50,275 nt of DNA from Flavobacterium sp. (GCA_043768185.1 JAYVKR010000206.1:1-50275), one strand, 5' to 3'; shown: positions 9,291 to 31,851, counted from the stretch's first letter. A program made the numbers and translations. The notes: a model not told the origin generated them from the sequence alone.

Positions 9291-10022
9291 ATGACAGCAA
9301 AATATATAAAAGAAGACGCAAACGATGTTGTATTTAATCTTGAATACAATGCTGAAAGACCACATTTATTGATTCCAGAATATGGAAGGCATTTGCAAAA
9401 ATTGATAGATCAAGCTACAGAAATTAAAGACGATGTAGAACGCAATAAAGCTGCAAAATATATTATTCAGGTAATGGGAAGTTTAAACCCACACTTGCGT
9501 GATGTACTGGATTTTCAGCATAAATTGTGGGATCAGTTGTTTATAATGTCTGATTTTAAACTAGTTGCCGATTCGCCTTACCCAATTCCAACACGAGATG
9601 TAATTCATTTACGTCCAGAAATTTTAAGTTATCCTCAAAAATATCCAAAATATAGATTTTATGGAAATAACATAAAATTTATGATAGACGTTGCCAATAA
9701 ATGGGAAGAAGGCGAAATGAAAAGTGCCTTGATAAAAGTTATTGCCAACCATATGAAAAAATCGTACTTGAGTTGGAATAAAGATATGGTTGAAGATTCG
9801 GTAATTTTTGAACATCTATTTGAACTTTCTGGTGGAAAATTAAACTTATTACAAAGCGAAGAAGAGCTTACTACGACAACAGATTTAATTAGAACCAACA
9901 AAAAAATATCTAATAAAACACTTTTACCACAACAAAAGAATTTAAAAATTCAGGCGTTTAAAAAACCTCAAGCTGGTAAAAAACCGTTTGTGAAAAATAA
10001 TAATAATAATTCGAAAGCTTAA
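9291..10022 (+). CDS. DUF4290 domain protein
   Basis: LEYN.ER..L.IPEYGR, HKLWDQL motifs; position upstream of murA. Confidence 0.85.
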   Translation: MTAKYIKEDANDVVFNLEYNAERPHLLIPEYGRHLQKLIDQATEIKDDVERNKAAKYIIQVMGSLNPHLRDVLDFQHKLWDQLFIMSDFKLVADSPYPIPTRDVIHLRPEILSYPQKYPKYRFYGNNIKFMIDVANKWEEGEMKSALIKVIANHMKKSYLSWNKDMVEDSVIFEHLFELSGGKLNLLQSEEELTTTTDLIRTNKKISNKTLLPQQKNLKIQAFKKPQAGKKPFVKNNNNNSKA

Positions 10023-10023
10023 T

Positions 10024-10135
10024 TTGTATATTGTATAATGTAAAATTGTAAATCAGTTATACATTATACAATTTTTACATTATACAGTTTTTACATTATG
10101 CAATTTTTACATTATACAATTTTTACATTATACAG
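10024..10135. repeat. 16-bp tandem repeat TACATTATACAATTTT (about 4.7 copies) preceded by an inverted copy
   Basis: Copies start at 10060, 10076, 10092, 10108, 10124; TTGTATAATGTAAAA at 10031 is the reverse complement. Confidence 0.85.
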
Positions 10136-10145
10136 AAAATAAACT

Positions 10146-11459
10146 ATGGGAACTTTTAAAATTGAAGGCGGAATTCAACTAAAAGGTGATGTTACACCAC
10201 AAGGCGCTAAAAATGAAGCGTTACAAATACTTTGCGCTGTATTATTAACGCCAGAAAAAATTACAATTAGTAACATTCCAGATATTATTGATGTAAATAA
10301 ATTAATAACATTATTAAAAAACTTAGGTGTAAAAATTGAAAAAATTGCACACGGAAGTTATACTTTTCAAGCAGATGATGTAAATGTTGGTTATCTAGAA
10401 ACTGAAGCTTTTAAAAAAGAAGGCGGAAGTTTACGTGGTTCTATTATGATTGTTGGTCCGCTTTTAGCACGATTTGGAAAAGGATATATTCCAAAACCTG
10501 GTGGCGATAAAATAGGTAGAAGAAGATTAGACACACACTTTGAAGGATTTATAAATCTTGGAGCAAAATTTAGATACAACAGAGAAGATCATTTTTATGG
10601 TGTAGAAACCGATGGTAAATTAAAAGGAGCATTTATGTTGCTTGATGAAGCATCTGTAACTGGAACTGCCAATATTGTAATGGCAGCAGTTCTTGCAGAA
10701 GGAACAACTACAATTTATAACGCTGCTTGCGAACCATACTTGCAACAACTTTGCAAAATGATGAACGCAATGGGAGCAAAGGTTAGTGGCATTGGTTCTA
10801 ACTTATTAACTATTGAAGGTGTAGATTCTCTTGGTGGTTGCGAGCACAGAATTTTGCCAGACATGATAGAAATTGGTTCTTGGATTGGTCTTGCTGCCAT
10901 GACTAAAAGTGAAATTACTATTAAAAATGTATCTTGGGATAATCTTGGTGTAATACCAAATGTTTTTAGAAAACTTGGAATTACAATAGAAAGAAAAGGC
11001 GATGATATTTATATTCCTGCGCATCTAGATGGTTATGAAATTAAAACCGATATTGATGGTTCCATTTTAACAGTTGCCGATGCACCTTGGCCTGGATTTA
11101 CTCCAGATTTATTGAGTATTGTTTTGGTTGTTGCCACACAATCTAAAGGTGATGTTTTAATTCACCAAAAAATGTTTGAAAGTAGATTGTTTTTTGTTGA
11201 CAAACTAATAGATATGGGTGCAAAAATTATGCTTTGCGATCCACACAGAGCTGTAGTTATGGGACACAATTTTGAGTCGCAACTTAAAGCTACCACAATG
11301 AGTTCGCCAGATATTAGAGCTGGAATTTCTTTATTGATAGCAGCACTTTCTGCTAAAGGAACTAGTATAATTCAAAATAGTGAGCAAATAGATAGAGGTT
11401 ACGAAAGAATAGACGAACGTCTTCGTGCTCTTGGTGCTAATATTGTTAGAGAAGATTAA
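10146..11459 (+). CDS. murA: UDP-N-acetylglucosamine 1-carboxyvinyltransferase
   Basis: GAKNEAL, PGGDKIGRR (Asp at the catalytic Cys position), PWPGFTPD, DIRAG, IDRGYE. Confidence 0.96.
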   Translation: MGTFKIEGGIQLKGDVTPQGAKNEALQILCAVLLTPEKITISNIPDIIDVNKLITLLKNLGVKIEKIAHGSYTFQADDVNVGYLETEAFKKEGGSLRGSIMIVGPLLARFGKGYIPKPGGDKIGRRRLDTHFEGFINLGAKFRYNREDHFYGVETDGKLKGAFMLLDEASVTGTANIVMAAVLAEGTTTIYNAACEPYLQQLCKMMNAMGAKVSGIGSNLLTIEGVDSLGGCEHRILPDMIEIGSWIGLAAMTKSEITIKNVSWDNLGVIPNVFRKLGITIERKGDDIYIPAHLDGYEIKTDIDGSILTVADAPWPGFTPDLLSIVLVVATQSKGDVLIHQKMFESRLFFVDKLIDMGAKIMLCDPHRAVVMGHNFESQLKATTMSSPDIRAGISLLIAALSAKGTSIIQNSEQIDRGYERIDERLRALGANIVRED

Positions 11460-17641: not shown

Positions 17642-19165
17642 ATGAGATCAAATTGGTACTCAGAAGATTACTTATTAGAAGAAAAAAACAGCTTTTACAG
17701 GAAGCTTTTAAACAAAATTCCAGATTTAATTTTTCAATTAAATATAAATCATATTAACGATTTTTATTTTTCTTATGTTAACAACAGTATAATTTCATTC
17801 TTAGAAATTACACAATCAGAATTAAAAGACAATCCACTAAAAATTATTTCTAGTAGAATTTTTCCAGATGATCTTGAAGGTTTTTTTGCCACATTATTTA
17901 AATCTAAAAAATCTGGTTTACCATGGTCGTATGAATTTAGAATTGTATTAGACAAAAAAGATATTACTTGGTTAAAAGTTGATGCCAATGTTGAAATAAG
18001 CAAAACTAAAGATTCTGTATTTTTTGGAAGATTGTCAGACATAACTATGATAAAAGAACGTGAGTTTAAAGTATCTAATTCTGAAGAACGATTTCATTTT
18101 GCCATGAAAGCTTCTAACAGCGGTGTTTGGGATTATAATGTTTCTAGTGGAGAAGTATATTTTTCTAAAGAATCATTAGCTATTATTCAATTTAATTTAG
18201 AAGATAATTTAAATACCAATGCACTTTGGGACGAAAGAATTCACCCAGAAGATTTAGATAATTATATAGAAAGTATAACTTCTCACAAAGAAAATAAAAC
18301 CACTTACTTCGAAAATTCTAAACGAGTTTTAGCCAAAGATGGTACTTATAGATGGGTTTTAAGTAGAGGTAAAATTATAGAAAGAGATAAAAATAACAAA
18401 CCTTTACGAATTATTGGCACGCATACAGATGTTACATTAGAGAAAGAAAGAGAAAACCATTTACTAGGTAATATTGATATTATAAATGCACAAAATAATA
18501 GATTGTTAAATTTTGCACATATAGTTTCACATAATTTAAGATCGCACACTGGGAATTTTAAAATGTTGTTAAATATTTTAGATAGCGATGACGATTTAGT
18601 TACGCGAGACGAATGTTTTAGTCATTTAAAATCTACTTCTAATGCACTTTCAGACACTATTGAGCATTTAAAAGAACTAGTTGATATACATTCTACAATA
18701 ATTCATAAAAGAGAAAAATTAAACTTAAAAATTTATTTAGACAGTACTTTAAGTATTTTAAGTAAAGAAATAAAGGATAACAATGTTGAGATTATTAATA
18801 ATGTAAACGAAAAACATTCAACCCATTTTAATCCAGCTTATTTAGAAAGTTTGTTTTTAAATTTTACAACCAATGCAATTAAATATTCGCATCCAAGTAG
18901 AGTTCCTGTAATAAGTTTTACATCAATTAAAGAAAAAAATAAATTAACTTTATTAATAAAAGATAACGGTTTGGGAATAAATTTAGAAAAATTTGGAGAA
19001 AAATTATTTGGTATGTATAAAACATTTCATAAAAATCCAAATGCTCGCGGAATAGGTTTGTTTATTACAAAAAATCAAATAGAATCTATGGGCGGAACTA
19101 TAGAAGTAGAAAGTAAAGTTAACGAAGGAAGCACTTTTAAAATAAATTTTAATGAAGAAGTATAA
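17642..19165 (+). CDS. Cytoplasmic PAS/PAC sensor histidine kinase (copy 1)
   Basis: Two PAS_3-like units (IFPDD, IHPED, WVLSRG, GTHTDVT), H-box IVSHNLRS, NAIKY, DNGLG, GIGL; no TM helix. Confidence 0.92.
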   Translation: MRSNWYSEDYLLEEKNSFYRKLLNKIPDLIFQLNINHINDFYFSYVNNSIISFLEITQSELKDNPLKIISSRIFPDDLEGFFATLFKSKKSGLPWSYEFRIVLDKKDITWLKVDANVEISKTKDSVFFGRLSDITMIKEREFKVSNSEERFHFAMKASNSGVWDYNVSSGEVYFSKESLAIIQFNLEDNLNTNALWDERIHPEDLDNYIESITSHKENKTTYFENSKRVLAKDGTYRWVLSRGKIIERDKNNKPLRIIGTHTDVTLEKERENHLLGNIDIINAQNNRLLNFAHIVSHNLRSHTGNFKMLLNILDSDDDLVTRDECFSHLKSTSNALSDTIEHLKELVDIHSTIIHKREKLNLKIYLDSTLSILSKEIKDNNVEIINNVNEKHSTHFNPAYLESLFLNFTTNAIKYSHPSRVPVISFTSIKEKNKLTLLIKDNGLGINLEKFGEKLFGMYKTFHKNPNARGIGLFITKNQIESMGGTIEVESKVNEGSTFKINFNEEV

Positions 19166-19535
19166 TTCTGTTTTTATTATAGATGATGATATTGTATTTC
19201 ATTTTATCATAAAAAAGTTATTTATAAAGAGTGATTTACATGTAAACACCAAATATTTTTTTAACGGATTAGAAGCAATTGAAGTTTTAAAAAATAGTGA
19301 GTTAGTACCAGATTTAATTTTACTAGACATAAATATGCCCATTTATGATGGCTGGCAATTTCTAGAAGAATTTAGAAATTTAAAAACAAGTTTAAATAAA
19401 AATATAGATGTTTTTTTAATTAGTTCTTCTAATGATATTTCAGATATTAATAAAGCTGCCCATTATAAAAACGAAGTTAAAAGATATTGCAATAAACCAT
19501 TAACCATATTAGAACTACAAAATATATTTAAATAA
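19152..19535 (+). CDS. Single-domain response regulator (copy 1)
   Basis: IIDDD, PDLILLDINMP, SSS, NKP; no output domain. Confidence 0.92.
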   Translation: MKKYNSVFIIDDDIVFHFIIKKLFIKSDLHVNTKYFFNGLEAIEVLKNSELVPDLILLDINMPIYDGWQFLEEFRNLKTSLNKNIDVFLISSSNDISDINKAAHYKNEVKRYCNKPLTILELQNIFK

Positions 19536-19628
19536 AGTTTAAAAATTTGGAGTAGAAATTCTACGGCTAAAAAAATTGTTATTACATATTATTTATTTCC
19601 TTTGCAAAACCTACTAACTAAATAAATA

Positions 19629-21134
19629 ATGAATCCCAATTCAAATAAGTTTGAAGATAGTTCCAATTATATTGGAAAAATCATAAACCAATTGCCTAAT
19701 ATTTTATTTCAATTTACAATATCTAGTGACTACATCATTGGTTGCGATTACATGAATGGACCTTTTTTTAATTTTTACGAACTTACAGTTCAAGATGTTT
19801 TAGAAAGAACAGATGATTGTATTAAAGAACGAATACATCCAGAAGATATAAATTTATTCAATTCTTCAATTGTTTCTTGTTTTAAATCATTAGAAAGATG
19901 GGAGTTATCATTTCGAGTTTTACTACCAAAAAAAGGTTTAAAATGGATAACAACATCTGCCAAGACCGAACGTTTAGAAAACGGAAGTGTAATTTTTTAT
20001 GGAGTTCAATCCGATGTTACACAATTAAAAAATAGTCAACAAGAACTAGAAATTTCTGAAGCTAGAAGTCAATTTGCCAATATGGCTTCCAATGTTGGCG
20101 TTTGGGATTGGAATTTAGTAACCAATAAAGTTTTTTACTCTAAAGAATCGCTAGAAATTTTAGAATTAGAAGAAAATGCTAAAGAACTTAGCAATCCAGA
20201 ATTTTGGGATGATAAAGTACATCCAGAAGATAGAGAAATTTATTTTGGAAATATAAAACTGCATTTTGACGGAATAATACCCTATTACGAAACTGTTCAC
20301 AGAGTATTGTGCAATAATAAATACAAATGGATTCTAGACAGAGGAAAAGTAATTAGTAGAGATGAAAATGGCAAACCAACTAGAATTGTTGGTACACACA
20401 CCGATGTTTCTAATCAAAAAAATAAAGAAGAAAAACTATTAAAAACATTAGAACTTGTTAATGATCAAAAAAATAAATTATTAAACTTTGCTCATATTGT
20501 ATCTCATAATTTAAAAAATCATACAGGAAATTTAAGTTCTTTAATAGAAATGAAAGAAACTGACATTTTAACTACTGATGAATTTTCTACTTATTTAAAA
20601 ACAGTTTCTGTAGAATTGTCTAACACAATTTTAAATTTAGAAGAATTAGTTAAAGTGCAAGAAACGGTTACAATAACTAAAGTTAATTTAAATTTAAATG
20701 AGTATTTAGATAAGACATTTAAAGTTTTATTTGACGATATAAATAAATCTAATGCTATAATTATTAACAATATACCTGTTAATGTTACTGTAAAATTTAT
20801 TCCTGCATACCTTGAAAGTATTTTGTTAAATTTGACTTCCAACGCTATAAAGTACTCTAGTGTAGATAGAAAATTAGAAATTATTTACACTGTAGAAATT
20901 GTTGATAACTTTATAATTTTATCAGTAAAAGATAACGGATTAGGCATAGATTTATACAGACATAAAGATTCTGTTTTTGGATTATATAAAACATTTCACG
21001 CTAACGAAGATTCTAGAGGTGTAGGTTTATATTTATCTAAAAATCAAATAGAATCTTTAAACGGAAAAATTGAAGTTGAAAGTGAAATAAATATAGGAAC
21101 AACATTTAAAGTGTTTTTTAATGAAGAATTTTAG
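19629..21134 (+). CDS. Cytoplasmic PAS/PAC sensor histidine kinase (copy 2)
   Basis: IHPED, VHPED, GTHTDVS, IVSHNLKN, NAIKY, DNGLG, GVGL; paralog of copy 1. Confidence 0.92.
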   Translation: MNPNSNKFEDSSNYIGKIINQLPNILFQFTISSDYIIGCDYMNGPFFNFYELTVQDVLERTDDCIKERIHPEDINLFNSSIVSCFKSLERWELSFRVLLPKKGLKWITTSAKTERLENGSVIFYGVQSDVTQLKNSQQELEISEARSQFANMASNVGVWDWNLVTNKVFYSKESLEILELEENAKELSNPEFWDDKVHPEDREIYFGNIKLHFDGIIPYYETVHRVLCNNKYKWILDRGKVISRDENGKPTRIVGTHTDVSNQKNKEEKLLKTLELVNDQKNKLLNFAHIVSHNLKNHTGNLSSLIEMKETDILTTDEFSTYLKTVSVELSNTILNLEELVKVQETVTITKVNLNLNEYLDKTFKVLFDDINKSNAIIINNIPVNVTVKFIPAYLESILLNLTSNAIKYSSVDRKLEIIYTVEIVDNFIILSVKDNGLGIDLYRHKDSVFGLYKTFHANEDSRGVGLYLSKNQIESLNGKIEVESEINIGTTFKVFFNEEF

Positions 21135-21519
21135 TAATGTATTTGTTGTAGATGATGATTTAGTTTTTCATTTTATTATGAAAAAGTTATTTGCAAAAAC
21201 TAATATTAATGTTAAAACAAGTTATTTTTTTAATGGTAACGAAGCAATAGATAATTTAAAAAATAATATCAATCAAGAAAATTCTGTTCCAGATTTAATT
21301 TTGTTAGATATAAATATGCCAGTTTGCGATGGTTGGCAATTTTTAGACGAGTTTAAAAAACTAAAACAATATTTAAAAAAAGAAATTATGGTTTACCTAG
21401 TTAGTTCCTCTAACGATCTATCTGATTTAAACAAATCTAAAGAATATGAAAACGAAATTCAACAATATTATAATAAACCAATGACTATTGAGAGTTTTCA
21501 AAATATTTTTGCAGCATAA
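21121..21519 (+). CDS. Single-domain response regulator (copy 2)
   Basis: VVDDD, PDLILLDINMP, SSS, NKP. Confidence 0.92.
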   Translation: MKNFSNVFVVDDDLVFHFIMKKLFAKTNINVKTSYFFNGNEAIDNLKNNINQENSVPDLILLDINMPVCDGWQFLDEFKKLKQYLKKEIMVYLVSSSNDLSDLNKSKEYENEIQQYYNKPMTIESFQNIFAA

Positions 21520-21847: not shown

Positions 21848-22996
21848 ATGTCTAAATTGCATCTTTCTAGTTCGGCATCAATAGAACAACATGAAACAAC
21901 TTGGTATGTTTTTTTAAATTCTAAATCTTTTAGAATTAATGAAACTATTGCAATAGTTCTTAATAAATTTAAAGAACCAATAACTATTAACGATGTTTTA
22001 AAAGAATTAATACCAAATTCTCCATCCAAATCCAATGAAATTTTAGACTCTATAACCAATTTTTTATTAGAAATGAAAAAAATTGGAGTTTTAAAACGCG
22101 AAAATGCCAAAGATTATGTAGCAATACCACAACCATTATTTGAACTAAATTCTACACATCTAGAATATAAAATTGAAACGCTACTACTTATTAATAATCA
22201 TATTCAAATTTATAAAGTTTTTAATAAAAAAAGAAAAAAACAATCAGTAATAAAACTATTTGCTCACAAAGTAGAAGAATCTATAAATGATAGAAAATTA
22301 ATTAAAAACTATGAAATGTTTCTTCAAGAAATTGCTATTACAAGTAGCATTCCGCCACAAGAAAATATAAATGAGTACATAAAATCTGCTACTATTTATG
22401 ATTATTTGTTTTTTGAAATAGATTTTATAGATGGCGAAACCTTGTCTAAATGTGTAAAATTAAATTCTATAGAAAATAAAATTAAAAATGATATTGCCAA
22501 GCAATTACTTTCGGCAGTGTCACATTTACATTTAAACAACATTATTCACAGTGATATTCATGCAAGAAATTTTATGATAAATACTGATAATAAGGTTAAA
22601 ATGATAGACTTTGGTTTTTCTCACAATTTAGAAAATAAAACTTTAACTAAACAGTATATGGTAAAAGGTGGCGTAACTCATTACATGACTCCAGAAAGAG
22701 TACACGTTCATAGTTATAAATTTTCTAACGAATATTCTACAAAACAATCTGAAGTGTATCAAATGGGTTTAATACTTTATGCATTATACAAAGGATTAAA
22801 TCCTTTTAACAAAGTTAAAGACGAAATTACCTGGAAAGAAATGGCACAAGATATTTTAACAAGAGAATTTAATGAAGAAATTTCTGGAGAAGAAAATATT
22901 GATATAATTATTAGAAAAGCATTAAAAATTAAACCCGAAGATCGATTTTTATCTTGTGTAGAAATGCACAACGAGTTTATAAAAAGCATAAATTAA
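21848..22996 (+). CDS. Ser/Thr protein kinase with N-terminal PqqD/RRE-like domain; putative RiPP maturase
   Basis: VIK, FLQEI, HSDIHARN, DFG, YMTPE, PEDRF kinase motifs; the first ~85 aa have a three-strand/three-helix RRE-like pattern (FRINET..VL..F..P.T..DVL...FLLEMKKIGVL). Confidence 0.85.
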   Translation: MSKLHLSSSASIEQHETTWYVFLNSKSFRINETIAIVLNKFKEPITINDVLKELIPNSPSKSNEILDSITNFLLEMKKIGVLKRENAKDYVAIPQPLFELNSTHLEYKIETLLLINNHIQIYKVFNKKRKKQSVIKLFAHKVEESINDRKLIKNYEMFLQEIAITSSIPPQENINEYIKSATIYDYLFFEIDFIDGETLSKCVKLNSIENKIKNDIAKQLLSAVSHLHLNNIIHSDIHARNFMINTDNKVKMIDFGFSHNLENKTLTKQYMVKGGVTHYMTPERVHVHSYKFSNEYSTKQSEVYQMGLILYALYKGLNPFNKVKDEITWKEMAQDILTREFNEEISGEENIDIIIRKALKIKPEDRFLSCVEMHNEFIKSIN

Positions 22997-23035
22997 AACT
23001 AATAAATAGTACATAAAAATAAGAAATAACAAGTT

Positions 23036-25420
23036 ATGGCTAAAACAGACCCACAGTTAAAGTCTAATGATTGCGGAATAAGTGTAATAAAAACAATTTA
23101 CAATATATTTAATCTAGACATTAGTAGAAAATATATTGAAGATAACATTGCACTTGAAGAAAAAGGATCAAGACTAATTGATATAAAAAATTTTTTAGAT
23201 GCAAATGGTTGCGAAGCCAATTATAAGCTATTAGACATTAATTACATTCAAGGAAATAAAAGTACGCTTGATGCACTTTTTCCTTTTATTTTGCCTTTAC
23301 AAAACAAATCTGGTTTACATTATGTTGTTGTAAACGGACGAGCCAACAATAAATTAAAAATTTACGATCCGGTAAAAGGAAGTCAATATTATCTATCAAT
23401 TCAAGAATTAAAAAAGCATTCTTTTTTTAGTAAAAATTATTGGGATTTAGCCAAAACCGATGAAAAAATTGCAGCACTTTGTACAGAAGATTTAAGTAAT
23501 TATGGAATTAAATATGACGATGTTGCGCTAGAAAATGACAACACAATGTTATTTAACAAGCTTACTTATTTTACTTATTTAAAAGAAAACTTTGGCTTTA
23601 AAAATAAAGTTAAAGAAAAAGAATTTGTACTTGACTTATTAAAAAATCAAGATATTTCTACAATACCCAAACATTTTAAATCATTAAAATACAGTTCAGA
23701 CAAAGTAAAAGTAACTGCGCCGTTAATATTAACAGTTAAAAAAGTAGTTTCTAAACAAAAGTTAGAGTTTCCCAAAGACGATAGTAGAAGTGTATACTGG
23801 CAATTATTTAAGCAAATTGGTCAGTTTAAACAACTGTGGTACATCTATATTTTTGCCGCATTATTTTCTGCAACAACAGCACAATTATCGGTTTTTACTA
23901 GTCAAATTTTAATTGATGATGTTTTGCCTTCCTATAATTTAAATACTTTAGTATTATTTGCAGTAGGAATAGGAGTTTATAAATTGTTTGATCTTTTTAC
24001 CTCATTATATAAAGCGTTTGTAGCCATACATTTAGGAAATTCGTTAGATAAATTTTTCTTGCAATCATTTGATAATAAGTTAAATACATTTTCGTTGCCT
24101 TATATTTCATCTTACAAGAAAGGCGATTTGCTAGAAAGAGTAAGCGATTCTTTAAAACTAAAATCATTCTTTTTACGCTATTTTACAAGTATTTTAGTAG
24201 ACGTTTCTGTAGCAATATATTCACTAGGAATACTATTTTATATTAACTGGAAAATCGCAATTATTGTTTTAATAGTAATGCTATCCTTTTTTACTTGGTT
24301 TAAAATAATAACACCAAGACTAAGACAAAATGAACGAATTAGATACATTAGTAAAGCCGACTTTTTATCTAAAATGATAGAAAAAATAGAAGGAATTCAA
24401 GTTATTAAAAGTTTTAAAATAGAACAATATCATTCTAATAAAATAAATTTAGGAATATCTAATTATTTAAAAATTCAATTAAAAAACGGTTATATAGATT
24501 TAATTAACCGATTTGTTGTTACAATTATTATATCTTTTTCATCTATAATGATATTGATATTGTTAACCAAGTTGGCTATAGAAGATCAAGCTATTACACT
24601 AGGTCAAATAGTTACATTTATTGGTCTTTCGGCAAGTATATTCTCTTCATTAAAAAGCATTTTAGAAGACAATCTTTCGCTTCAAGAAAATGAAGTAATA
24701 TTAAAACGAAACCTAGATTTTAATGAAGAATTACCTCTTAATTCAGCTAAAGGAATTAAAGATTTTACCATACAAAATGTGGCTATTAAAGATTTAAACT
24801 TTGGTTATTTTGACGATCAACCCATTTTAAAAAATATAAATTTTAATTTTAATAGTGGCGATAAAATAAAAATTGAAGGACAAAATGGATCTGGAAAATC
24901 TACACTTAGCAAGGTTTTAACAGGATTGTATTATCCTAAATCTGGCGATTTTTTAATAAACGATAACATCAATAAACTTTATGATCCAAATAAAATAAAA
25001 GATAAAATTTTATTAGTTACCAATGAAGATACTTTGTTTAATGACACCATTGAAGGAAATATTTTATTAGGAAAAGATATAAGTAGAAGTATAATTATAA
25101 ATTATGCTAAGCAAATAGATTTTTATGATTTTATTGCCAATAAAGAAGAAGCATTAGATTTTATTGTTAATGAAAATGGTAAAAATTTATCTACAGGTCA
25201 AAGAAAAAAGATTTTACTTTTAAGAGCATTACTATCTAAAGCTGAGGTTATAATTCTAGATGAAGTACTCTCTGGAATGGACATAGAGAGTAGAATTAAA
25301 GTAGAGCAATTAATAAACGATGATAAACGTACTTTTATAATAATATCGCACGAGCCAATAGAAAAAATAAGTTTCACTAAAAAATATAAAATTACCAATG
25401 GAGAACTCAATATTATATGA
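23036..25420 (+). CDS. Peptidase C39-containing ABC transporter (PCAT)
   Basis: Q....DCG, HYVVV, IYDP triad; multi-TM domain; GQNGSGKS, LSTGQ, ILDE, ISH. Confidence 0.93.
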   Translation: MAKTDPQLKSNDCGISVIKTIYNIFNLDISRKYIEDNIALEEKGSRLIDIKNFLDANGCEANYKLLDINYIQGNKSTLDALFPFILPLQNKSGLHYVVVNGRANNKLKIYDPVKGSQYYLSIQELKKHSFFSKNYWDLAKTDEKIAALCTEDLSNYGIKYDDVALENDNTMLFNKLTYFTYLKENFGFKNKVKEKEFVLDLLKNQDISTIPKHFKSLKYSSDKVKVTAPLILTVKKVVSKQKLEFPKDDSRSVYWQLFKQIGQFKQLWYIYIFAALFSATTAQLSVFTSQILIDDVLPSYNLNTLVLFAVGIGVYKLFDLFTSLYKAFVAIHLGNSLDKFFLQSFDNKLNTFSLPYISSYKKGDLLERVSDSLKLKSFFLRYFTSILVDVSVAIYSLGILFYINWKIAIIVLIVMLSFFTWFKIITPRLRQNERIRYISKADFLSKMIEKIEGIQVIKSFKIEQYHSNKINLGISNYLKIQLKNGYIDLINRFVVTIIISFSSIMILILLTKLAIEDQAITLGQIVTFIGLSASIFSSLKSILEDNLSLQENEVILKRNLDFNEELPLNSAKGIKDFTIQNVAIKDLNFGYFDDQPILKNINFNFNSGDKIKIEGQNGSGKSTLSKVLTGLYYPKSGDFLINDNINKLYDPNKIKDKILLVTNEDTLFNDTIEGNILLGKDISRSIIINYAKQIDFYDFIANKEEALDFIVNENGKNLSTGQRKKILLLRALLSKAEVIILDEVLSGMDIESRIKVEQLINDDKRTFIIISHEPIEKISFTKKYKITNGELNII

Positions 25421-26615
25421 TACTAAATCCATACGATTTATAAAAATTATTTTTAGAATAACGCTGTTTTTTACAATCGTTGGAATAGGTTTATTGTTTT
25501 TATTACAAATTAATGATTCGATAAAATTTAACGAAGGTTCTATTTATTCTAATAATCCACAAGTTAAAATAAATGCGCCTAATGAAGTAAAGATTTTAAA
25601 AATAAATGTTGCCGAAGGTGAAGAAGTTAAAAAAGGCGACACCATATTTGAACTAGAAAATTTAAAAACACAAGCCGATTTTGATATTGTAAATCTAGAC
25701 GTTACAACTCTAGAAGAAAAAATTAAAAACTGCAATATGTTAATAAACAGTTCTGTACAAGAAAAAACGGCAATGCAACGATTAATTGCAATACAATCTA
25801 ATATTTTTAGTACAGACAAGAAAAAAACAGAACAAGAAATTAAAAATCTTAACAGTAAAATTGGTTGGTCTAAAAAGCAAAGTAATGATATAACAGAACG
25901 TTATAAAACAGATTCTATATTGTATGCCAAAGGTGCAATTTCTAAGTTAGAGTTGTCTGAACAGTCTAAAAATAGAATTGATGATAAAAAACAAGAATCA
26001 GACATAACAACCAATTATCAAATTAAAAAATACGATTATAATAATCTTGCCAATAATTATCAAAAAACGGCAAGCGATTTAAAACTTAATATAATTGCTA
26101 TAGACAATCAAATACTTAATTATAAAGGTCAAATATTAGAATTGCAATCGCAAATTGACAATAAAAAAGTAAATATGAAATATTTTAAAGATGAGTTGGG
26201 CAAGTTAATTGTACTTTCTCCATTTAATGGAACCATATCTAACTTGTTTAATGACAAACAAAATTTGCAAATTATTAATAAAGGAGAATTGTTAACAATT
26301 ATATCTCCAAATCAAGAAAACTATTATTCTAAAGTTGCGTTAACAGACAAAGATTTAATTTATGTAAAAAAAGGTCAAGAAGTTAATTTAAAATTAGATG
26401 CCTATAATTTTTATAAATATGGTGCAATAAAAGGAGTAGTTTCTTATGTTTCTGAATCAGATATTAATAATAAATTCTTTTGTATTGTAAAATTAAAAAA
26501 ATACAACGAAAGAATTAAATTAAAAGCAGGTTATAGTTTAAAAGGAGAAATAGTTATTGATAAAATGAGTCTTTTTAACTACATGATGAAAAAGCTGTTT
26601 AAAAAACTAGATTAA
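25398..26615 (+). CDS. HlyD-family membrane fusion protein
   Basis: N-terminal TM, V.EGEEVKKGD lipoyl half, long coiled coil, SPFNGTI, KYGAIKG.V. Confidence 0.92.
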   Translation: MENSILYDTKSIRFIKIIFRITLFFTIVGIGLLFLLQINDSIKFNEGSIYSNNPQVKINAPNEVKILKINVAEGEEVKKGDTIFELENLKTQADFDIVNLDVTTLEEKIKNCNMLINSSVQEKTAMQRLIAIQSNIFSTDKKKTEQEIKNLNSKIGWSKKQSNDITERYKTDSILYAKGAISKLELSEQSKNRIDDKKQESDITTNYQIKKYDYNNLANNYQKTASDLKLNIIAIDNQILNYKGQILELQSQIDNKKVNMKYFKDELGKLIVLSPFNGTISNLFNDKQNLQIINKGELLTIISPNQENYYSKVALTDKDLIYVKKGQEVNLKLDAYNFYKYGAIKGVVSYVSESDINNKFFCIVKLKKYNERIKLKAGYSLKGEIVIDKMSLFNYMMKKLFKKLD

Positions 26616-26636
26616 AAAACAAAACATTTTTTTGAG

Positions 26637-27950
26637 ATGAAAAAAATTAGTTACACCATAATACTATTACATTTAGTTTTGTTTTCTTACTGTCAAGAAA
26701 ATTTAAGCTTAACAGATTGCTTTTTTATAGCATTAAAAAATAATTTAAATTTAAAGGACGAACAGTTTAACGCAAAAATATCTAAGACTAGAGTAAATGC
26801 TGCCAAATTAAAAGCGTTGCCAAGTATTAATAGTAGTGCAACCAACAGATATTCTTGGGGAAGATCTATAGATCCAGATTCTAACAGTTACATAGAAACA
26901 CAATTTAGTACAGTTTCTGGCGGAATTGGAAGTTCGTTTAATTTATTTTCTGGATTTCAAAATTTAAATGCTATTAAACAAGCCAAGCAAGACTTAATGA
27001 TTAACAAAGTTAATTATGCACAAGTTGAAAACGATTTAAAAATTAATATAGCTTCTAAGTATACTTCAATTTTATTTTTACAAGAAATAGTAAAATCGCT
27101 AAAAGCAGAAAAGGAATCTACAACTAAACAGTTGGAAATGATTGAACTAAAGTTTAAAGCTGGTTATTTATCTGAAAGTGAAGTTTATAAAGTAAAATCG
27201 CAACTTGCCAATTTAGATGTAACTTTAATTACAACCGAGAATGAATTAGATATAAATTTTTTAGATTTAAAACAGTTACTAAATTTAGATGTTACTAAAA
27301 CAGTAACATTAAATCCATTAATAAATGAGGATTTTACAATATTAGAATTAGAAAAAGAAGAAGAATTTGTATCTAAAAATGTAGAAATTTATCCTATGTA
27401 TCAAATATCTAAACTACAATTGCTAAAATCTAAAACAGATATTAGTTTAAATAGAAGTGCTTTGTTTCCTAAAATTAGTTCTAATTTTAATTACAATTCT
27501 TTTTATACAAGTAGTAAAGAATTAATAACTTTTAACAATCAAATAAATTTAAATTTAAATTACAGTGTAGGATTTTCTGTTTCTATGCCATTATTTAACC
27601 AATCTCAAGCCAGATCTAAAATTAAAGAAAGCAAACTTATTTATTTGCAAAATAAAGTAAAACTAGATTTAGAAAAAATGCGCGTTACTAAAATTCTTTA
27701 TCAATCTGTAAAGGATGCAAAATCTGCAAAGAAAAAATATGAAGCTGCAAAATTAAATTTTGAATTCTCATCTAAAAGTTATGAAGCTGATATTTTAAAA
27801 TTTAATTATGGAAAAATAAATTTTAATGATTTAATAGTTACTAAAAATGAATACTTAAATTCTCAATCTAATTTGATAAAATCCAAGTATGAATTTTTAT
27901 TTAATAATGCATTGATAAATTTTTATAAAGGAAATGATTTTACGCTATAA
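26637..27950 (+). CDS. TolC-family outer-membrane efflux protein
   Basis: Signal peptide, ALKNN, LPSI, LFSGF, S.PLFN, KF..G repeats. Confidence 0.9.
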   Translation: MKKISYTIILLHLVLFSYCQENLSLTDCFFIALKNNLNLKDEQFNAKISKTRVNAAKLKALPSINSSATNRYSWGRSIDPDSNSYIETQFSTVSGGIGSSFNLFSGFQNLNAIKQAKQDLMINKVNYAQVENDLKINIASKYTSILFLQEIVKSLKAEKESTTKQLEMIELKFKAGYLSESEVYKVKSQLANLDVTLITTENELDINFLDLKQLLNLDVTKTVTLNPLINEDFTILELEKEEEFVSKNVEIYPMYQISKLQLLKSKTDISLNRSALFPKISSNFNYNSFYTSSKELITFNNQINLNLNYSVGFSVSMPLFNQSQARSKIKESKLIYLQNKVKLDLEKMRVTKILYQSVKDAKSAKKKYEAAKLNFEFSSKSYEADILKFNYGKINFNDLIVTKNEYLNSQSNLIKSKYEFLFNNALINFYKGNDFTL

Positions 27951-28030
27951 TTATTAACATAATTTTAATAGTTTATATTCTACTTTAATTTATTAAAAAT
28001 AAATATTTTCTTATAAATTAAATGTTATTT

Positions 28031-28082
28031 ATGTATTTCATCGATTTTATTTGCATTTAAACTGATTTAATTCTTATATTTG
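28031..28082 (+). promoter_or_regulatory. Promoter of precursor 1: ATGTATTTCATCG box, TTTG (-33), TATATTTG (-7)
   Basis: Box at 28031, TTTG at 28050, -7 element at 28075. Confidence 0.65.
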
Positions 28083-28124
28083 TATTGTTAAATTTTAATA
28101 TTAAATAAATTTTAAAAATAATAT

Positions 28125-28157
28125 GGTCGCTTTAACACTCAAGACCTTTAATGGAGT
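28125..28157 (+). promoter_or_regulatory. Conserved 5'-leader motif, copy 1 (pseudoknot-capable)
   Basis: GGTC GCTTTAAC ACTC AA GACC TTTAATG GAGT. Confidence 0.7.
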
Positions 28158-28175
28158 AACTAATAATTGTCCCAA

Positions 28176-28337
28176 ATGATTACATTAGAAAAATTAACAC
28201 AAGAATTAAGAATTGAAAATTTAGATTTAGTAGTTGGTGGAGGAAAAAAGCCAAAGAGTGTAAAATCTCTTAGTAATTCTTCTAGTTCATCACATTCGTC
28301 ATCAACAGACGTGGTAGTTGTAGTTGATACTAAATAA
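28176..28337 (+). CDS. Double-glycine precursor peptide 1, 53 aa: MITLEKLTQELRIENLDLVVGG-GKKPKSVKSLSNSSSSSHSSSTDVVVVVDTK
   Basis: Translated by hand; GG leader with hydrophobic -4/-7/-12 positions; paralog of 30033..30215. Confidence 0.92.
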   Translation: MITLEKLTQELRIENLDLVVGGGKKPKSVKSLSNSSSSSHSSSTDVVVVVDTK

Positions 28338-28358
28338 TACTTTTTTTAGTTATTAATT

Positions 28359-28388
28359 AAAGACTGTCTTGTGGCAGTCTTTTTTTTT
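28359..28388 (+). terminator. Terminator after precursor 1
   Basis: AAAGACTGTC-TTGT-GGCAGTCTTTTTTTTT. Confidence 0.85.
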
Positions 28389-28584
28389 GGATAATGGTAA
28401 TCATAATAATTATTTGTAAAACCATCGTTGAACTACATACCTCTTGTAGATAAACGATTTTATCGTTAGTTTGTAGATTTTATTTTAGAGATAGTTACAA
28501 TGTTTATATTTTTACATCAGAAATAAAAACAAAGAGTAATTTCATTACCTAATAGTAGTTTTACTATTGAAATTATTTTTTAAA

Positions 28585-28616
28585 GGTCGTTTTAACACTC
28601 AAGACCATAATGGAGT
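28585..28616 (+). promoter_or_regulatory. Conserved 5'-leader motif, copy 2
   Basis: GGTC GTTTTAAC ACTC AA GACC ATAATG GAGT. Confidence 0.7.
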
Positions 28617-28636
28617 AAAACTAAAAATCGTCCCAA

Positions 28637-28801
28637 ATGATTTCATTAGAAAAATTAACACAAGAATTAAACATTAACAATTTAGAATTAATAGTTGGTG
28701 GAGGAAAAAAAGTAAAAAGTATAAAAAGCATAAGCGAATCTAGTTCTGCTTCTTCTCACTCTTCATCATCAGGTTCATCATTTGAAGCACCAATAAAATA
28801 A
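28637..28801 (+). CDS. Double-glycine precursor peptide 2, 54 aa: MISLEKLTQELNINNLELIVGG-GKKVKSIKSISESSSASSHSSSSGSSFEAPIK
   Basis: Translated by hand; conserved GG leader. Confidence 0.92.
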   Translation: MISLEKLTQELNINNLELIVGGGKKVKSIKSISESSSASSHSSSSGSSFEAPIK

Positions 28802-28823
28802 TAATTTTATAAAAATATAAATT

Positions 28824-28853
28824 AAAGACTGTCCATTGGCAGTCTTTTTTTTT
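28824..28853 (+). terminator. Terminator after precursor 2
   Basis: AAAGACTGTCCATTGGCAGTCTTTTTTTTT. Confidence 0.85.
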
Positions 28854-29050
28854 GGGTTTGTAGCGAATATAATAATTATATAATAAACTATCGATGAACT
28901 ACATACCGCTTGTAGATAAACGATTTTATCGTTAGTTTGTAGATTTTATTTTAGAGATAGTTACAATGTGTTTATTTTTACATCAGAAATAAAAACAAAG
29001 AGTAATTTCATTACCTAATAGTAGTAACATACTATTGAAATTATTTTTAA

Positions 29051-29082
29051 GGTCGTTTTAACACTCAAGACCATAATGGAGT
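29051..29082 (+). promoter_or_regulatory. Conserved 5'-leader motif, copy 3
   Basis: Identical to copy 2. Confidence 0.7.
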
Positions 29083-29102
29083 AAAACTAAAAATCGTCCC
29101 AA

Positions 29103-29267
29103 ATGATTTCATTAGAAAGATTAACACAAGAATTAAGCATTGAGAATTTAGAATTAATAGTTGGTGGAGGAAAGAAAGTAAAAAGTATAAAAAGCATAAG
29201 CGAATCTAGTTCTGCTTCTTCTCACTCTTCAACATCTGGTTCATCATTTGAAGCACCAATAAAATAA
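29103..29267 (+). CDS. Double-glycine precursor peptide 3, 54 aa: MISLERLTQELSIENLELIVGG-GKKVKSIKSISESSSASSHSSTSGSSFEAPIK
   Basis: Translated by hand; core differs from precursor 2 by one S-to-T change. Confidence 0.92.
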   Translation: MISLERLTQELSIENLELIVGGGKKVKSIKSISESSSASSHSSTSGSSFEAPIK

Positions 29268-29290
29268 ATAATTTTATAAAAATATAAATT

Positions 29291-29320
29291 AAAGACTGTC
29301 CATTGGCAGTCTTTTTTTTT
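29291..29320 (+). terminator. Terminator after precursor 3
   Basis: AAAGACTGTCCATTGGCAGTCTTTTTTTTT. Confidence 0.85.
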
Positions 29321-29434
29321 GGGTTTGTAAAGAATAGAAGTGATAAATATTGTAATTTAACGAGTATAATAGCAATTTATAGATTTTATTTTTAAATTAA
29401 TATTATATTACTTTATTTTATGATAAATTATTAA

Positions 29435-29466
29435 GGTCGCTTAAACACTCAAGACCAAAATGGAGT
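29435..29466 (+). promoter_or_regulatory. Conserved 5'-leader motif, copy 4
   Basis: GGTC GCTTAAAC ACTC AA GACC AAAATG GAGT, retained although the flanks have diverged. Confidence 0.7.
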
Positions 29467-29482
29467 ATTTATATAGTATAAT

Positions 29483-29653
29483 ATGATAACACTAGAAAGA
29501 TTATCCCAAGATTTAAATGTTGAAAATTTTGATTTAATAGTTGGTGGATGTCCACCAGTAGGAGTTGGAAGCAGTAGTAAAGTTACATGCAAATCTGTAT
29601 CTTCAATGTCTTCAATGTCTACAAAATCAGTTAAAATTAAAATTAAGCATTAA
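29483..29653 (+). CDS. Double-glycine precursor peptide 4 (divergent, two Cys), 56 aa: MITLERLSQDLNVENFDLIVGG-CPPVGVGSSSKVTCKSVSSMSSMSTKSVKIKIKH
   Basis: Translated by hand; conserved leader, different core. Confidence 0.9.
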   Translation: MITLERLSQDLNVENFDLIVGGCPPVGVGSSSKVTCKSVSSMSSMSTKSVKIKIKH

Positions 29654-29670
29654 TTTTTTTTAAAAAATTT

Positions 29671-29708
29671 AAAAGTCAGTTTTTATTAATAAATTCTGAC
29701 TTTTTTTT
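29671..29708 (+). terminator. Terminator after precursor 4
   Basis: AAAAGTCAG...CTGACTTTTTTTT. Confidence 0.7.
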
Positions 29709-29980
29709 ATGAATAAATGTTTCAATAAAACTTAATTTATTAATAAATTATAATAAGTTTAGTAATAATATATTGTTAATTAATTGCATAAATTAACAAA
29801 TTTAAAAGCAATTTTATTCGATAAACTACATTGTACTTGCAATTTAACGAGTTTATTGACAAGTTGGTAGATTTTATTTTAAACATAGTTAACATATACT
29901 TAGTTTTACATCAGAAACAAAAACAAGAAGTAATTTCATTACCTAATATTATATAATAATATTGAAATTATTTTTTAAAA

Positions 29981-30012
29981 GGTCGCCTTAACACTCAAGA
30001 CCATAATGGAGT
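29981..30012 (+). promoter_or_regulatory. Conserved 5'-leader motif, copy 5
   Basis: GGTC GCCTTAAC ACTC AA GACC ATAATG GAGT. Confidence 0.7.
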
Positions 30013-30032
30013 AAAATAAAAAATCGTCCCAA

Positions 30033-30215
30033 ATGATTACATTAGAAAGATTAACACAAGAATTAAGAATTGAAAATTTAGAATTACTAGTTGGTGGTGG
30101 AAAAAAAGTAAAGAGTATAAAAAGTGCAAGCGGATCAAGTTCTGCATCATCTCACTCTAGTTCTTCTCATTCAAATTCTTCTACAGTAGTTGTAGACATT
30201 AGAGTTTACAATTAA
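30033..30215 (+). CDS. Double-glycine precursor peptide 5, 60 aa: MITLERLTQELRIENLELLVGG-GKKVKSIKSASGSSSASSHSSSSHSNSSTVVVDIRVYN
   Basis: In the ORF track; GG leader, 15 Ser in a 38-aa core. Confidence 0.92.
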   Translation: MITLERLTQELRIENLELLVGGGKKVKSIKSASGSSSASSHSSSSHSNSSTVVVDIRVYN

Positions 30216-30234
30216 TAAAAAGATTTATTATACT

Positions 30235-30268
30235 AAAAAAGACTGCTTAAAAGCAGTCTTTTTTTTTG
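30235..30268. terminator. Bidirectional terminator between precursor 5 and rny
   Basis: AAAAAAGACTGCTT-AA-AAGCAGTCTTTTTTTTT. Confidence 0.88.
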
Positions 30269-30285
30269 AATTGAAAGTATTAATA

Positions 30286-31851
30286 TTATTTAGCGATATT
30301 AACCGCACGAGTTTCTCTAATTACTGTAATTTTAACTTGTCCAGGATAAGTCATTTCTGTTTGAATTTTTTGTGATATTTCAAATGATAAATTTTGAGCC
30401 ATATCATCACTCACTTTTTCACTTTCTACAATAACTCTAAGTTCGCGTCCGGCTTGAATTGCATAAGCGTTTTTAACGCCATTAAATCCAAAAGCTATTT
30501 CTTCTAAATCTTTAAGTCGTTGAATGTATGAATCTAATACTTGACGTCTTGCGCCAGGTCTTGCGCCAGAAATTGCATCACAAACCTGAATAATTGGAGA
30601 AATTAAATATTTCATTTCAATCTCATCGTGGTGTGCTCCAATTGCGTTGCATACTTCTTCTTTTTCTCCAAATTTTTCTGCCCATTGCATTCCTAAAAGT
30701 GCGTGAGGTAAATCGCTTTCTGCATCTGGAACTTTACCAATATCGTGAAGTAAACCAGCACGTTTAGCCAATTTAACATTCAAGCCAAGTTCTGCAGCCA
30801 TAATTCCGCAAAGTTTTGAAACTTCTCTTGAATGTTGTAATAAATTTTGTCCGTAAGACGATCGGTATTTCATTCTACCAACAACTTTTATAAGTTCTGG
30901 ATGCAAACCGTGAATTCCCAAATCAATTACAGTTCTTTTACCAACTTCTATAATTTCATCATCAATTTGTTTGGTAGTTTTTGCAACAACTTCTTCAATT
31001 CTTGCTGGGTGAATTCTACCATCGGTAACTAATTTATGCAATGCCAATCGTGCAATTTCTCTTCTAACTGGATCAAAACAAGATAATATAATTGCTTCTG
31101 GTGTATCATCAACAATAATTTCAACTCCTGTTGCAGCTTCAAGTGCACGAATATTTCTTCCTTCTCTACCAATAATTCTTCCTTTTACATCGTCAGATTC
31201 TATATTGAAAACAGATACGCAATTCTCTACAGCTTCTTCTGTTCCAACACGTTGTATGGTAGAAATAATTACTTTTTTAGCTTCTTGTGCAGCAGTAAGT
31301 TTAGCTTCTTCTATTGTATCTTGAATGTGCGACATAGCTTTGGTTTTTGCCTCAGCTTTCAAGCTTTCTACAAGTTGTTCTTTGGCATCTTCTGCAGAAA
31401 GTCCAGAAATTACTTCTAGTTGTTCTACTTGGCTTTTGTGCATTTTTTCAACTTCATTTTGCTTTTTATCTAGCAACTCAATTTTAGAAGTATATTCAGT
31501 AGTTTTAGCTTCGTAATCATCGTTAACTTTCTTAGCTTTAGATAATTCGCTAGAAACTTGCGATTCTTTATCTCGTATTCTTTTTTCAACTTCGGCAAGT
31601 TTTTTATCTTTAGCCAAAATATCCTTTTCGTGCTCTGATTTTAACTCTAAAAACTTTTCTTTTGCTTGTAAAAGCTTGGCTTGTTTCGTATTTTCTGCTT
31701 CAAGATTAGCTTCTTTTATTATAGAACCAGCTTCTTTTTTTGCACTTTTTATCATGTTAGAAACGTTGCTCTTTTCCAAAAATTTTGCAATTGCAAAACC
31801 ACCGCCGATTCCAGCTAAAACTGCAAAAATTATAAATAATGTTGTACTCAT
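30286..31851 (-). CDS. rny: Ribonuclease Y
   Basis: N-terminal TM, coiled coil, KH ([13 protein letters not shown]), HD (LLHDIGK), [11 protein letters not shown]. Confidence 0.97.

Follow-up and report, generated by a model that had tools for sequence, protein, structure and literature searches.

A candidate RiPP family of Bacteroidota combining a predicted RRE-kinase, a double-glycine exporter and serine-rich precursors

Multiply phosphorylated peptides are laborious to make chemically. Here we describe a gene cluster that may encode a biological route to them. It lies in a 50,275-nucleotide stretch of DNA from Flavobacterium sp. (GCA_043768185.1 JAYVKR010000206.1:1-50275, hereafter the window), and is read as a system for peptides that are ribosomally made and modified after translation (RiPPs), in which a Ser/Thr kinase with a predicted RiPP recognition element (RRE) is encoded together with a peptidase-containing ATP-binding cassette transporter (PCAT), an HlyD adaptor, a TolC channel and five small Ser-rich precursors. 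Natural products are described as rarely phosphorylated (PMC12639078), and one to four phosphates are carried by the phospho-RiPPs of the papers cited here (PMC9259500, PMC13381572, PMC12639078).

Phospeptin, from Ca. Eudoremicrobium malaspinii, is made by EmbM, which resembles a LanM dehydratase with a degenerate elimination site and places two phosphates on Thr (PMC9259500). It shares with the system proposed for the window that it is a linear RiPP with a single maturase, and phosphorylation without dehydration is reported as its final state (PMC9259500). In vitro, LahT150, a PCAT protease domain, was used to take off the phospeptin leader (PMC9259500), and a C39 PCAT is encoded in the window. 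Unlike phospeptin, the window has a PknB-like kinase fused to an RRE, cores with 10-15 Ser, and a dedicated PCAT-HlyD-TolC exporter. The preliminary description of the locus took phospeptin to be a kinase-only RiPP and the nearest precedent. The former does not hold, the enzyme being LanM-dehydratase-like and no Hanks kinase (PMC9259500), and the linear polyphosphorylated peptides (LPPs) of Bacillota, published in 2026, form a second precedent (PMC13381572). LPPs carry up to four phosphates stacked on one Ser (Popov et al. 2026, PMC13381572), and are made with an HprK-like kinase, a discrete RRE, a SipW-type peptidase and an NTP transferase, from precursors with a YxxPxVL leader (PMC13381572). 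They share with the system proposed here RRE dependence, a kinase as the primary modifier, a linear product, a conserved leader with a variable core, and a patchy distribution (PMC13381572). Unlike LPPs, the window encodes a Hanks kinase with the predicted RRE fused to it and a C39 PCAT, and its precursors combine many Ser sites with a double-glycine leader that has no YxxPxVL motif; the main text of the LPP paper, for its part, does not contain 'Bacteroid', 'Hanks' or 'PCAT' (PMC13381572).

In LanKC and LanL, as is proposed here, a eukaryote-like Ser/Thr kinase domain without a canonical P-loop acts on a leader-bound peptide (PMC10604976, PMC9828337). Unlike these enzymes, the window kinase has no lyase or cyclase, either fused or nearby, and four of its five cores have no Cys; moreover LanKC has no RRE, whereas the window kinase has a predicted one (PMC10604976, PMC9828337). 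Phosphorylated cyanobactins offer a further parallel, since the PKc-like kinase of DolG/AphG leaves phosphate as a final RiPP modification (PMC12639078). Unlike the window kinase, that domain sits inside a macrocyclase; it has a preference for Tyr and works at a late stage, placing one or two phosphates on peptides that are already cyclic (PMC12639078). The window system would work like these phospho-RiPPs, but does not have the enzymes that define any one of them. No description of an RRE-kinase/poly-Ser precursor family, or of secreted peptides with many phosphoserines as a product type, was found in the literature searched (supplements and most subscription journals lay outside its scope), in keeping with the preliminary description, which did not recognise the family. 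In the text available, 'kinase' does not occur in RRE-Finder (PMC7470986) or Ren 2023 (PMC10036551), and the kinases mentioned in a survey of Bacteroidales RiPPs (PMC10352776) are histidine kinases only.

The reading that we consider likely is that the RRE-kinase phosphorylates core Ser residues at many sites, that the leader is then cut off, and that a linear phosphopeptide is exported. The RRE would grip the precursor leader, and the kinase, as the sole tailoring enzyme, would phosphorylate several to many core Ser at the expense of ATP. The C39 transporter would then cut behind the double glycine, after G22, and the linear phosphoserine-rich peptide would leave through PCAT-HlyD-TolC. As regards heavy phosphorylation, we infer the kinase activity, the choice of Ser as acceptor and the number of phosphates.

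The kinase, PCAT, HlyD and TolC genes form, in this order, a single operon on the + strand (21848-27950), and the five precursor genes lie downstream of TolC (Table 1), just as the preliminary description had it. The leader of all five precursors is 22 residues long, ends in (V/I/L)VGG and is hydrophobic at -4, -7 and -12. The cores start with 5-6 Lys/Arg and contain 0-2 Thr; Cys is confined to precursor 4. If cut after G22, the cores of precursors 1 to 5 would have monoisotopic masses of 3160.66, 3210.64, 3224.65, 3493.81 and 3850.94 before any modification. A leader profile searched against the 3.06-Mb host assembly (G000, 78.8% complete) finds exactly these five, with E values of 1e-10 to 8e-9, which are low partly by construction; the next best match has an E value of 0.12. 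Comparison with the closest locus, L011, gives dN/dS values of 0.18 for precursor 1 and 0.13 for precursor 5.

For the wider family, 19 loci were read (the window, L011-L014, L016, L100, L101 and L115-L125). L126 repeats the L011 kinase and was counted once; L015 and 52 of 53 metagenome loci were left out, as they match part of the kinase domain only. One to five adjacent small open reading frames (ORFs) with a related leader occur at all 19 loci, and PCAT plus HlyD at 16 of them; a co-occurrence analysis of this kind had been proposed in the preliminary description, and its outcome, together with the predicted RRE fold and leader docking described below, favours the RiPP reading. In most loci the precursors are directly upstream of the kinase, those of the window and L011 being downstream of TolC. 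The family leader consensus is MITLxxLxxELxxExxxLxVxG; several relatives have AG, AAG or EAG at the leader end, and where these would be cut is uncertain. Minimal loci, with precursor and kinase and no exporter, are L100 (8075-9594), L120 (2756-5116) and L121 (9008-11283).

Of 34 precursors seen, 30 were aligned. Their cores contain 28.6% Ser, as compared with 5.3% in the leaders and 7.0% in the long frames of G000, with 20 of the 30 cores reaching 20% Ser and 18 having no Cys. The most extreme are those of L122 (22 Ser in 31 residues, Asp/Glu being present and basic residues absent) and L115 (18 in 29). Both boxes of Ser codons are used in the aligned cores (207 TCN, 111 AGY), which argues for Ser being kept by selection at the protein level rather than being a mere DNA repeat. 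No NCBIfam model covers the 30 aligned precursors over its cut-off, so routine annotation would not flag them. A large clade of database precursors has Ser-Lys-Lys repeats and Cys-rich tails, and poly-Ser is therefore not family-wide; in two relatives (P0218, P0220) Thr replaces Ser in the same repeat. The family trait is a low-complexity, hydroxyl-rich core, of which poly-Ser is one branch. Hence, of the poly-Ser Flavobacterium family originally proposed, the poly-Ser character stands for the window, while the family reaches beyond Flavobacterium and its cores are not all poly-Ser. The cores of L120 belong to the Ser-Lys-Lys clade and have its Cys-rich tails. At L117 (5283-7337) there are five precursors with Arg or Ser runs and Cys/Trp/Tyr tails, next to a divergent calcineurin-like phosphatase, and at L118 (11187-11465) a 92-aa ORF downstream of HlyD, with an internal double-glycine-type motif and an Asp/Asn-rich tail, is possibly another exported peptide.

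The distribution of the gene cluster is patchy across Bacteroidota. The full-length kinase was found in 2 of 400 genomes of the phylum, the same 2 among 400 of the class, and 1 of 300 of the genus, and, for two other families, in 8/171 and 5/171 genomes. Among the members with a name are Hymenobacter roseosalivarius, with kinase P0020 in strain DSM 11622, and Chitinophagales. A TolC of the family type is present at nine loci and a different OEP at L115, and two loci are cut by contig ends. A phosphatase gene lies in or beside the cluster at 7 of the 19 loci. Two unrelated families are involved. The calcineurin-like phosphatase of L016 lies between kinase and PCAT, that of L101 immediately follows the kinase, and that of L117 is divergent; in L122-L125, which form one clade, a PP2C gene comes directly behind TolC. 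These linked phosphatases add independent support for phosphate chemistry.

The assignment of an RRE to the N-terminus of the kinase, made in the preliminary description, is weak from sequence and gains its support from the predicted fold. Pfam gives a faint PqqD match to residues 23-82 (E 0.064), and PqqD is matched in 10 of 18 family kinase N-termini, with a best E value of 5.6e-5; when the RRE alignment was used as a sequence profile against the PDB, no match fell below E 0.07. The model of the domain has a pLDDT of 81.7, and its top Foldseek matches are ThcOx, a cyanobactin heterocyclase, TbiB1 and TigE. VIA-align superimposes it on TigE with Z 10.8 (rmsd 2.3, 89 residues aligned) and on TbiB1 with Z 9.9 (rmsd 2.9, 81 aligned), scores that are equalled by two or three non-RiPP winged-helix domains (Z 10.4 for 3dee). 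On the strength of the model, the N-terminal domain is predicted to be an RRE.

It is also predicted that this RRE grips the leader. When the kinase was modelled in complex with precursor residues 1-32, the score was 0.69, the best of three controls reaching 0.00. Of 157 solved pairs 116 attain the mark applied, as do 2 of 215 mismatched ones; these counts are roughly valid since our own alignments were used. The runs share at least 75% of contacts, with a partner pLDDT of 64 or more. In the model, the third strand of the RRE (26-30) pairs with leader residues 15-19, and residues 321-332 of the kinase C-lobe are also in contact. Pairing of a strand with the leader is the canonical mode of RRE binding (PMC9828337), and because the docking follows that mode, the pass may reflect likeness to solved RRE-leader complexes.

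The kinase domain itself is closest to PknB/Stk1 among solved structures, and scores 111.7 bits against Pkinase and 15.8 bits against APH, the latter under the cut-off of 23.2. It has K136, E161, an H-S-D-I-H-x-x-N catalytic loop, DFG, PE and R366, and no Gly-rich loop. In an alignment of 90 full-length relatives of 374-434 aa that covers the N-terminus (5, together with 85 picked from 150 listed matches), K136, E161, D236, D254, P282, E283 and R366 are invariant in 90/90. The kinase dN/dS is 0.21. As a separate observation, the kinase is 73% identical to its L011 orthologue (10001-11149) with dS 0.86, whereas the PCAT is 98% identical with dS 0.27 and xerD has dS 0.34; the far greater divergence of the kinase suggests that its gene has been exchanged by recombination. 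The best longer relative, P0236, proved to be an unrelated double kinase without RRE, and the borderline genome matches in G369 and G436 (L102, L103) are generic kinases.

The exporter set is complete in the window, with HlyD and OEP/TolC genes beside the PCAT. C39 residues Q7, C13, H95 and D111 are present, as are the Walker A/B and signature motifs. Colicin V type double-glycine peptides are likewise exported by PCAT-HlyD-TolC, and have in common with the window system the leader pattern, the C39 catalytic residues and the three-part exporter. Unlike the colicin V type, the window has the RRE-kinase, low-complexity Ser-rich cores, and, in its PCAT, a family-specific stretch of some 100 aa that follows the C39 core. 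This stretch is conserved in 14/14 aligned family PCATs. It was found in 5 of 171 genomes of family f22, all five within the 8 kinase carriers, and in 0 of the 163 others; as those five were in the query alignment, the informative part is the 0/163. A search of the Atlas with the stretch gave no informative match, a single one at 0.77 being a lead only. The kinase and PCAT trees agree in their well-supported groups, which kinship alone can yield.

Several observations weigh against the proposed phosphorylation and export. A GxG loop is found in 0/90 family kinases, the catalytic-loop Lys is His in 87/90, and the P+1-loop Thr is missing in all 18 aligned loci; motifs alone thus fix neither activity nor Ser specificity. 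The missing Gly-rich loop is no sign of a dead enzyme, because an active lanthipeptide kinase likewise has no P-loop-like sequence (PMC9828337). However, isolated lanthipeptide kinase domains add one phosphate (CurKC, VenL) or none (ThurKC) (PMC10604976, PMC9828337), so heavy phosphorylation is not assured. The nearest Atlas structures over residues 1-382 are kinase-LanC fusions of 782-805 aa, with TM 0.7, which links the kinase to lanthipeptide enzymes. The three minimal loci lack a PCAT. Of 56 database precursors, 16 reach 20% Ser and 8 have no Cys, and one L121 core is Ser-free. Finally, no phosphatase of the linked types was found in G000 (78.8% complete) and none lies in the window cluster, and the PP2C genes of L122-L125, representing one clade, may belong to the downstream TPR/CHAT genes.

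The protein might instead be a pseudo-kinase or regulator, acting as a leader chaperone or phosphorylating the exporter or another protein, with unmodified bacteriocin-like or signalling peptides being exported. The degenerate Gly-rich loop, the His in place of the catalytic-loop Lys and the missing P+1 Thr all fit this proposal, as does the fact that PknB and Stk1, the closest solved structures, are regulatory kinases, and two pairs of histidine kinase and response regulator are encoded just upstream. We consider it improbable: the core catalytic residues are invariant, the cores are selectively Ser-rich, and kinase and precursor stay paired even where the PCAT is missing. Moreover, Pfam gives only PAS and ATPase domains for the upstream histidine kinases, and a similar one occurs at xerD in other Flavobacterium loci. 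Even less probable is that the phosphoserines are intermediates, which a remote lyase/cyclase converts to dehydroalanine or lanthionine, as in a split class V or a class III/IV system. Class V, or split, lanthipeptide systems use an APH-fold kinase with a HopA1-family lyase partner. The window kinase does score weakly against the LanKC and LanL kinases (40.6 and 46.8 bits, cut-offs 575 and 650; E 1e-10 and 1e-12), its structural neighbours in the Atlas are kinase-LanC fusions, and Cys is present in precursor 4 and many relatives. In the ESM Atlas these fusions, which span the whole RRE-kinase, form clusters of 805 aa (commonest in Acidobacteriota) and 782 aa (commonest in Bacteroidota); by their length they may have no lyase, and they may be relatives or ancestors of the RRE-kinase family. 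Carrier G849 has a LanB 2.6 Mb from the cluster, the only LanB among five carriers, and a HopA1 match under the cut-off. Against these stand the searches for the enzymes themselves. The 382-aa kinase has no fused lyase or cyclase domain, and a scan of 70 neighbouring proteins at family loci gave no lyase, LanB, LanC, LanM or HopA1, in line with the original view of the kinase as the only modifying enzyme. LanC was not found in seven carriers (G000, 78.8% complete; G1355, G271, G849, G904, G1041 and G967); in family f27 the same search is positive in 12 of 41 genomes, the carriers G271, a single contig, and G967 being negative. HopA1 was never over the cut-off in G000 and five carriers that are 92-100% complete, with a positive control, and G000 gave no LanC, LanB or HopA1 match. 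DUF4135 had no match in the kinase or in G000, the control of the G000 search being blank. The LanKC profile matches only the window RRE-kinase in G000, and its matches in carriers begin at profile position 217 or later, that is, in the kinase part only. LanC is found in 0 of 31 longer sequence relatives, which is weak evidence, and four of the five window cores have no Cys. The preliminary description had named dehydration by an enzyme encoded elsewhere as a finding that would tell against it; in the carriers searched, the LanB of G849 is all that was found, LanC and HopA1 over the cut-off being absent.

A different possibility, unlikely but less so than these two, is that phosphorylation is transient, masking a basic and potentially toxic core or licensing export, and that a phosphatase then strips the phosphates to leave a cationic peptide with antimicrobial or nucleic-acid binding activity. 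The phosphatases linked at 7/19 loci would suit this, in particular that of L016, which has an N-terminal hydrophobic anchor and lies between kinase and PCAT, as would the many Lys/Arg-rich cores, such as the SKK repeats of L120, the Arg runs of L117 and the basic starts of the window cores. However, basic residues are missing from the cores at L115 and L122-L125, which contain up to 22 Ser in 31 residues together with Asp/Glu, so that there is nothing to mask, and the absence of a phosphatase from the window cluster, and of the linked type from the incomplete G000 assembly, again counts against it.

A conserved element lies about 50 nt upstream of each window precursor and fits an H-type pseudoknot. 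It is also found in L011, L012 (3536), L013 (9237), L014 (9715) and L141 (1522, - strand). The second helix covaries (ACUC/GAGU, GUCC/GGAC, GCCC/GGGC, GUUC/GAAC): a descriptor that does not require this helix gave 13 distinct matches, and in 12 of them the 4-bp complement is perfect, with four sequence variants represented. Alignment A7 misplaces the 3' strand of the second helix by one column in L013/L014 and L141 and thus undercounts the pairing; the descriptor scan is cleaner. Minimum-energy folds are not significant (z 0.48 to -1.15), as expected, since the pseudoknot is not modelled. One of 200 other genomes of the genus has the element ahead of an unrelated secreted-protein gene, so it is not specific to the cluster. 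Rfam gave no family at gathering score over 27900-30300, and the viral contigs gave no match to the motif. At L071 1155-1190 (the same place as L101) the Rfam family DUF805b lies ahead of the precursor with 39.7 bits, over gathering, and it scores 19.9 bits at L113; DUF805b RNA is also placed upstream of precursors in L122-L125. It would appear that two lineages put a small structured motif in front of their precursors. A terminator scan gave 6 sites, against 1.4 in shuffles, and four of the precursors have a called terminator, while a sigma-70 promoter scan was at chance level (71 vs 68.2). With its own upstream element and terminator-like hairpin, each precursor appears to be a separate unit.

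Table 1. Features of the RRE-kinase cluster (positions counted from the first nucleotide of the window).
Feature	Position	Strand	Basis
Stand-alone RRE-kinase, 382 aa; aa 1-86 predicted RRE, then PknB-like kinase domain	21848..22996	+	Pkinase E 5e-32
RRE domain: beta strands, then three helices; predicted leader-binding strand aa 26-30	21848..22105	+	predicted fold
PCAT, 794 aa	23036..25420	+	Peptidase_C39 + ABC_membrane + ABC_tran
PCAT family-specific stretch, ~100 aa after C39 core, NKLTYFxYxxxNFGF motif	23417..23743	+	PCAT alignment
HlyD periplasmic adaptor, 405 aa	25398..26615	+	domain match
TolC-type outer-membrane channel (TolC/OEP), 437 aa	26637..27950	+	domain match
Upstream element 1, predicted H-type pseudoknot (GGUC/GACC and ACUC/GAGU)	28125..28157	+	
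Precursor 1, 53 aa; core 31 aa, 11 Ser, no Cys	28176..28337	+	
Terminator-like hairpin 3' of precursor 1	28359..28382	+	terminator scan
Upstream element 2	28585..28616	+	
Precursor 2, 54 aa; core 32 aa, 14 Ser, no Cys	28637..28801	+	
Terminator-like hairpin 3' of precursor 2	28824..28847	+	terminator scan
Upstream element 3	29051..29082	+	
Precursor 3, 54 aa; core 32 aa, 13 Ser, no Cys	29103..29267	+	
Terminator-like hairpin 3' of precursor 3	29291..29314	+	terminator scan
Upstream element 4	29435..29466	+	
Precursor 4, 56 aa; core 34 aa, 10 Ser, 2 Cys; divergent type, L011 has one too	29483..29653	+	
Hairpin 3' of precursor 4	29671-29704		visible in sequence, not scanner-called
Upstream element 5	29981..30012	+	
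Precursor 5, 60 aa; core 38 aa, 15 Ser, no Cys	30033..30215	+	
Terminator-like hairpin 3' of precursor 5, facing convergent rny gene	30235..30264	+	terminator scan

The cluster looks to have been inserted between xerD and rny. Its GC content is 23.5-25.6%, against 28.8% for the genome, and L011 occupies the same genomic site. Among 13 other xerD loci of the genus, rny is within about 1 kb of xerD in 8, a histidine kinase lies between in 3, and a contig edge is met in 2. Between xerD and the cluster (17642-21519) there are two tandem pairs of a PAS histidine kinase and a single-domain response regulator. These were not counted as part of the system, a similar histidine kinase being present at the xerD site in other members of the genus, in L128 directly between xerD and rny. 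The kinase had no match in the PLSDB plasmids at 1e-15. It is worth adding that a contig over one precursor repeat unit (28833-29329) has a depth of 77.5 and 69.5 in runs X1 and X2, compared with 20.5 and 19.1 for the operon; because this depth exceeds that of the operon in both runs, the array may hold more precursor copies than were assembled, with the repeat unit of precursor 3 representing several copies collapsed.

Phosphoserine-rich products of the eukaryotic secretory pathway include phosvitin, dentin phosphophoryn and the diatom silaffins. The analogy, for which no homology is claimed, lies in runs of Ser combined with acidic residues (L115, L122-L125) or with Lys (the window, L120), and Ser-rich cores, if phosphorylated, would bind metals or minerals as these proteins do. 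If the mechanism is as proposed, the product could be a polyanionic or zwitterionic peptide that binds Ca, Fe or mineral surfaces outside the cell, a role that we put forward tentatively and by analogy; competition or signalling may be the role instead. Somewhat more doubtful still is the larger picture, in which Bacteroidota would secrete phosvitin- or phosphophoryn-like peptides with ten to twenty phosphoserines as the finished product, serving as phosphate-based metal chelators or as mineral or surface binders, and made by a processive leader-guided kinase and a cargo-adapted exporter, with reversal by a phosphatase in some lineages. If the proposed reading is true, the cluster would represent a new family of phospho-RiPPs, with substrates of 30-70% Ser, an RRE-guided eukaryote-like kinase as the only tailoring enzyme, and an exporter of its own, and it would provide a two-gene, leader-programmable route to multiply phosphorylated peptides.

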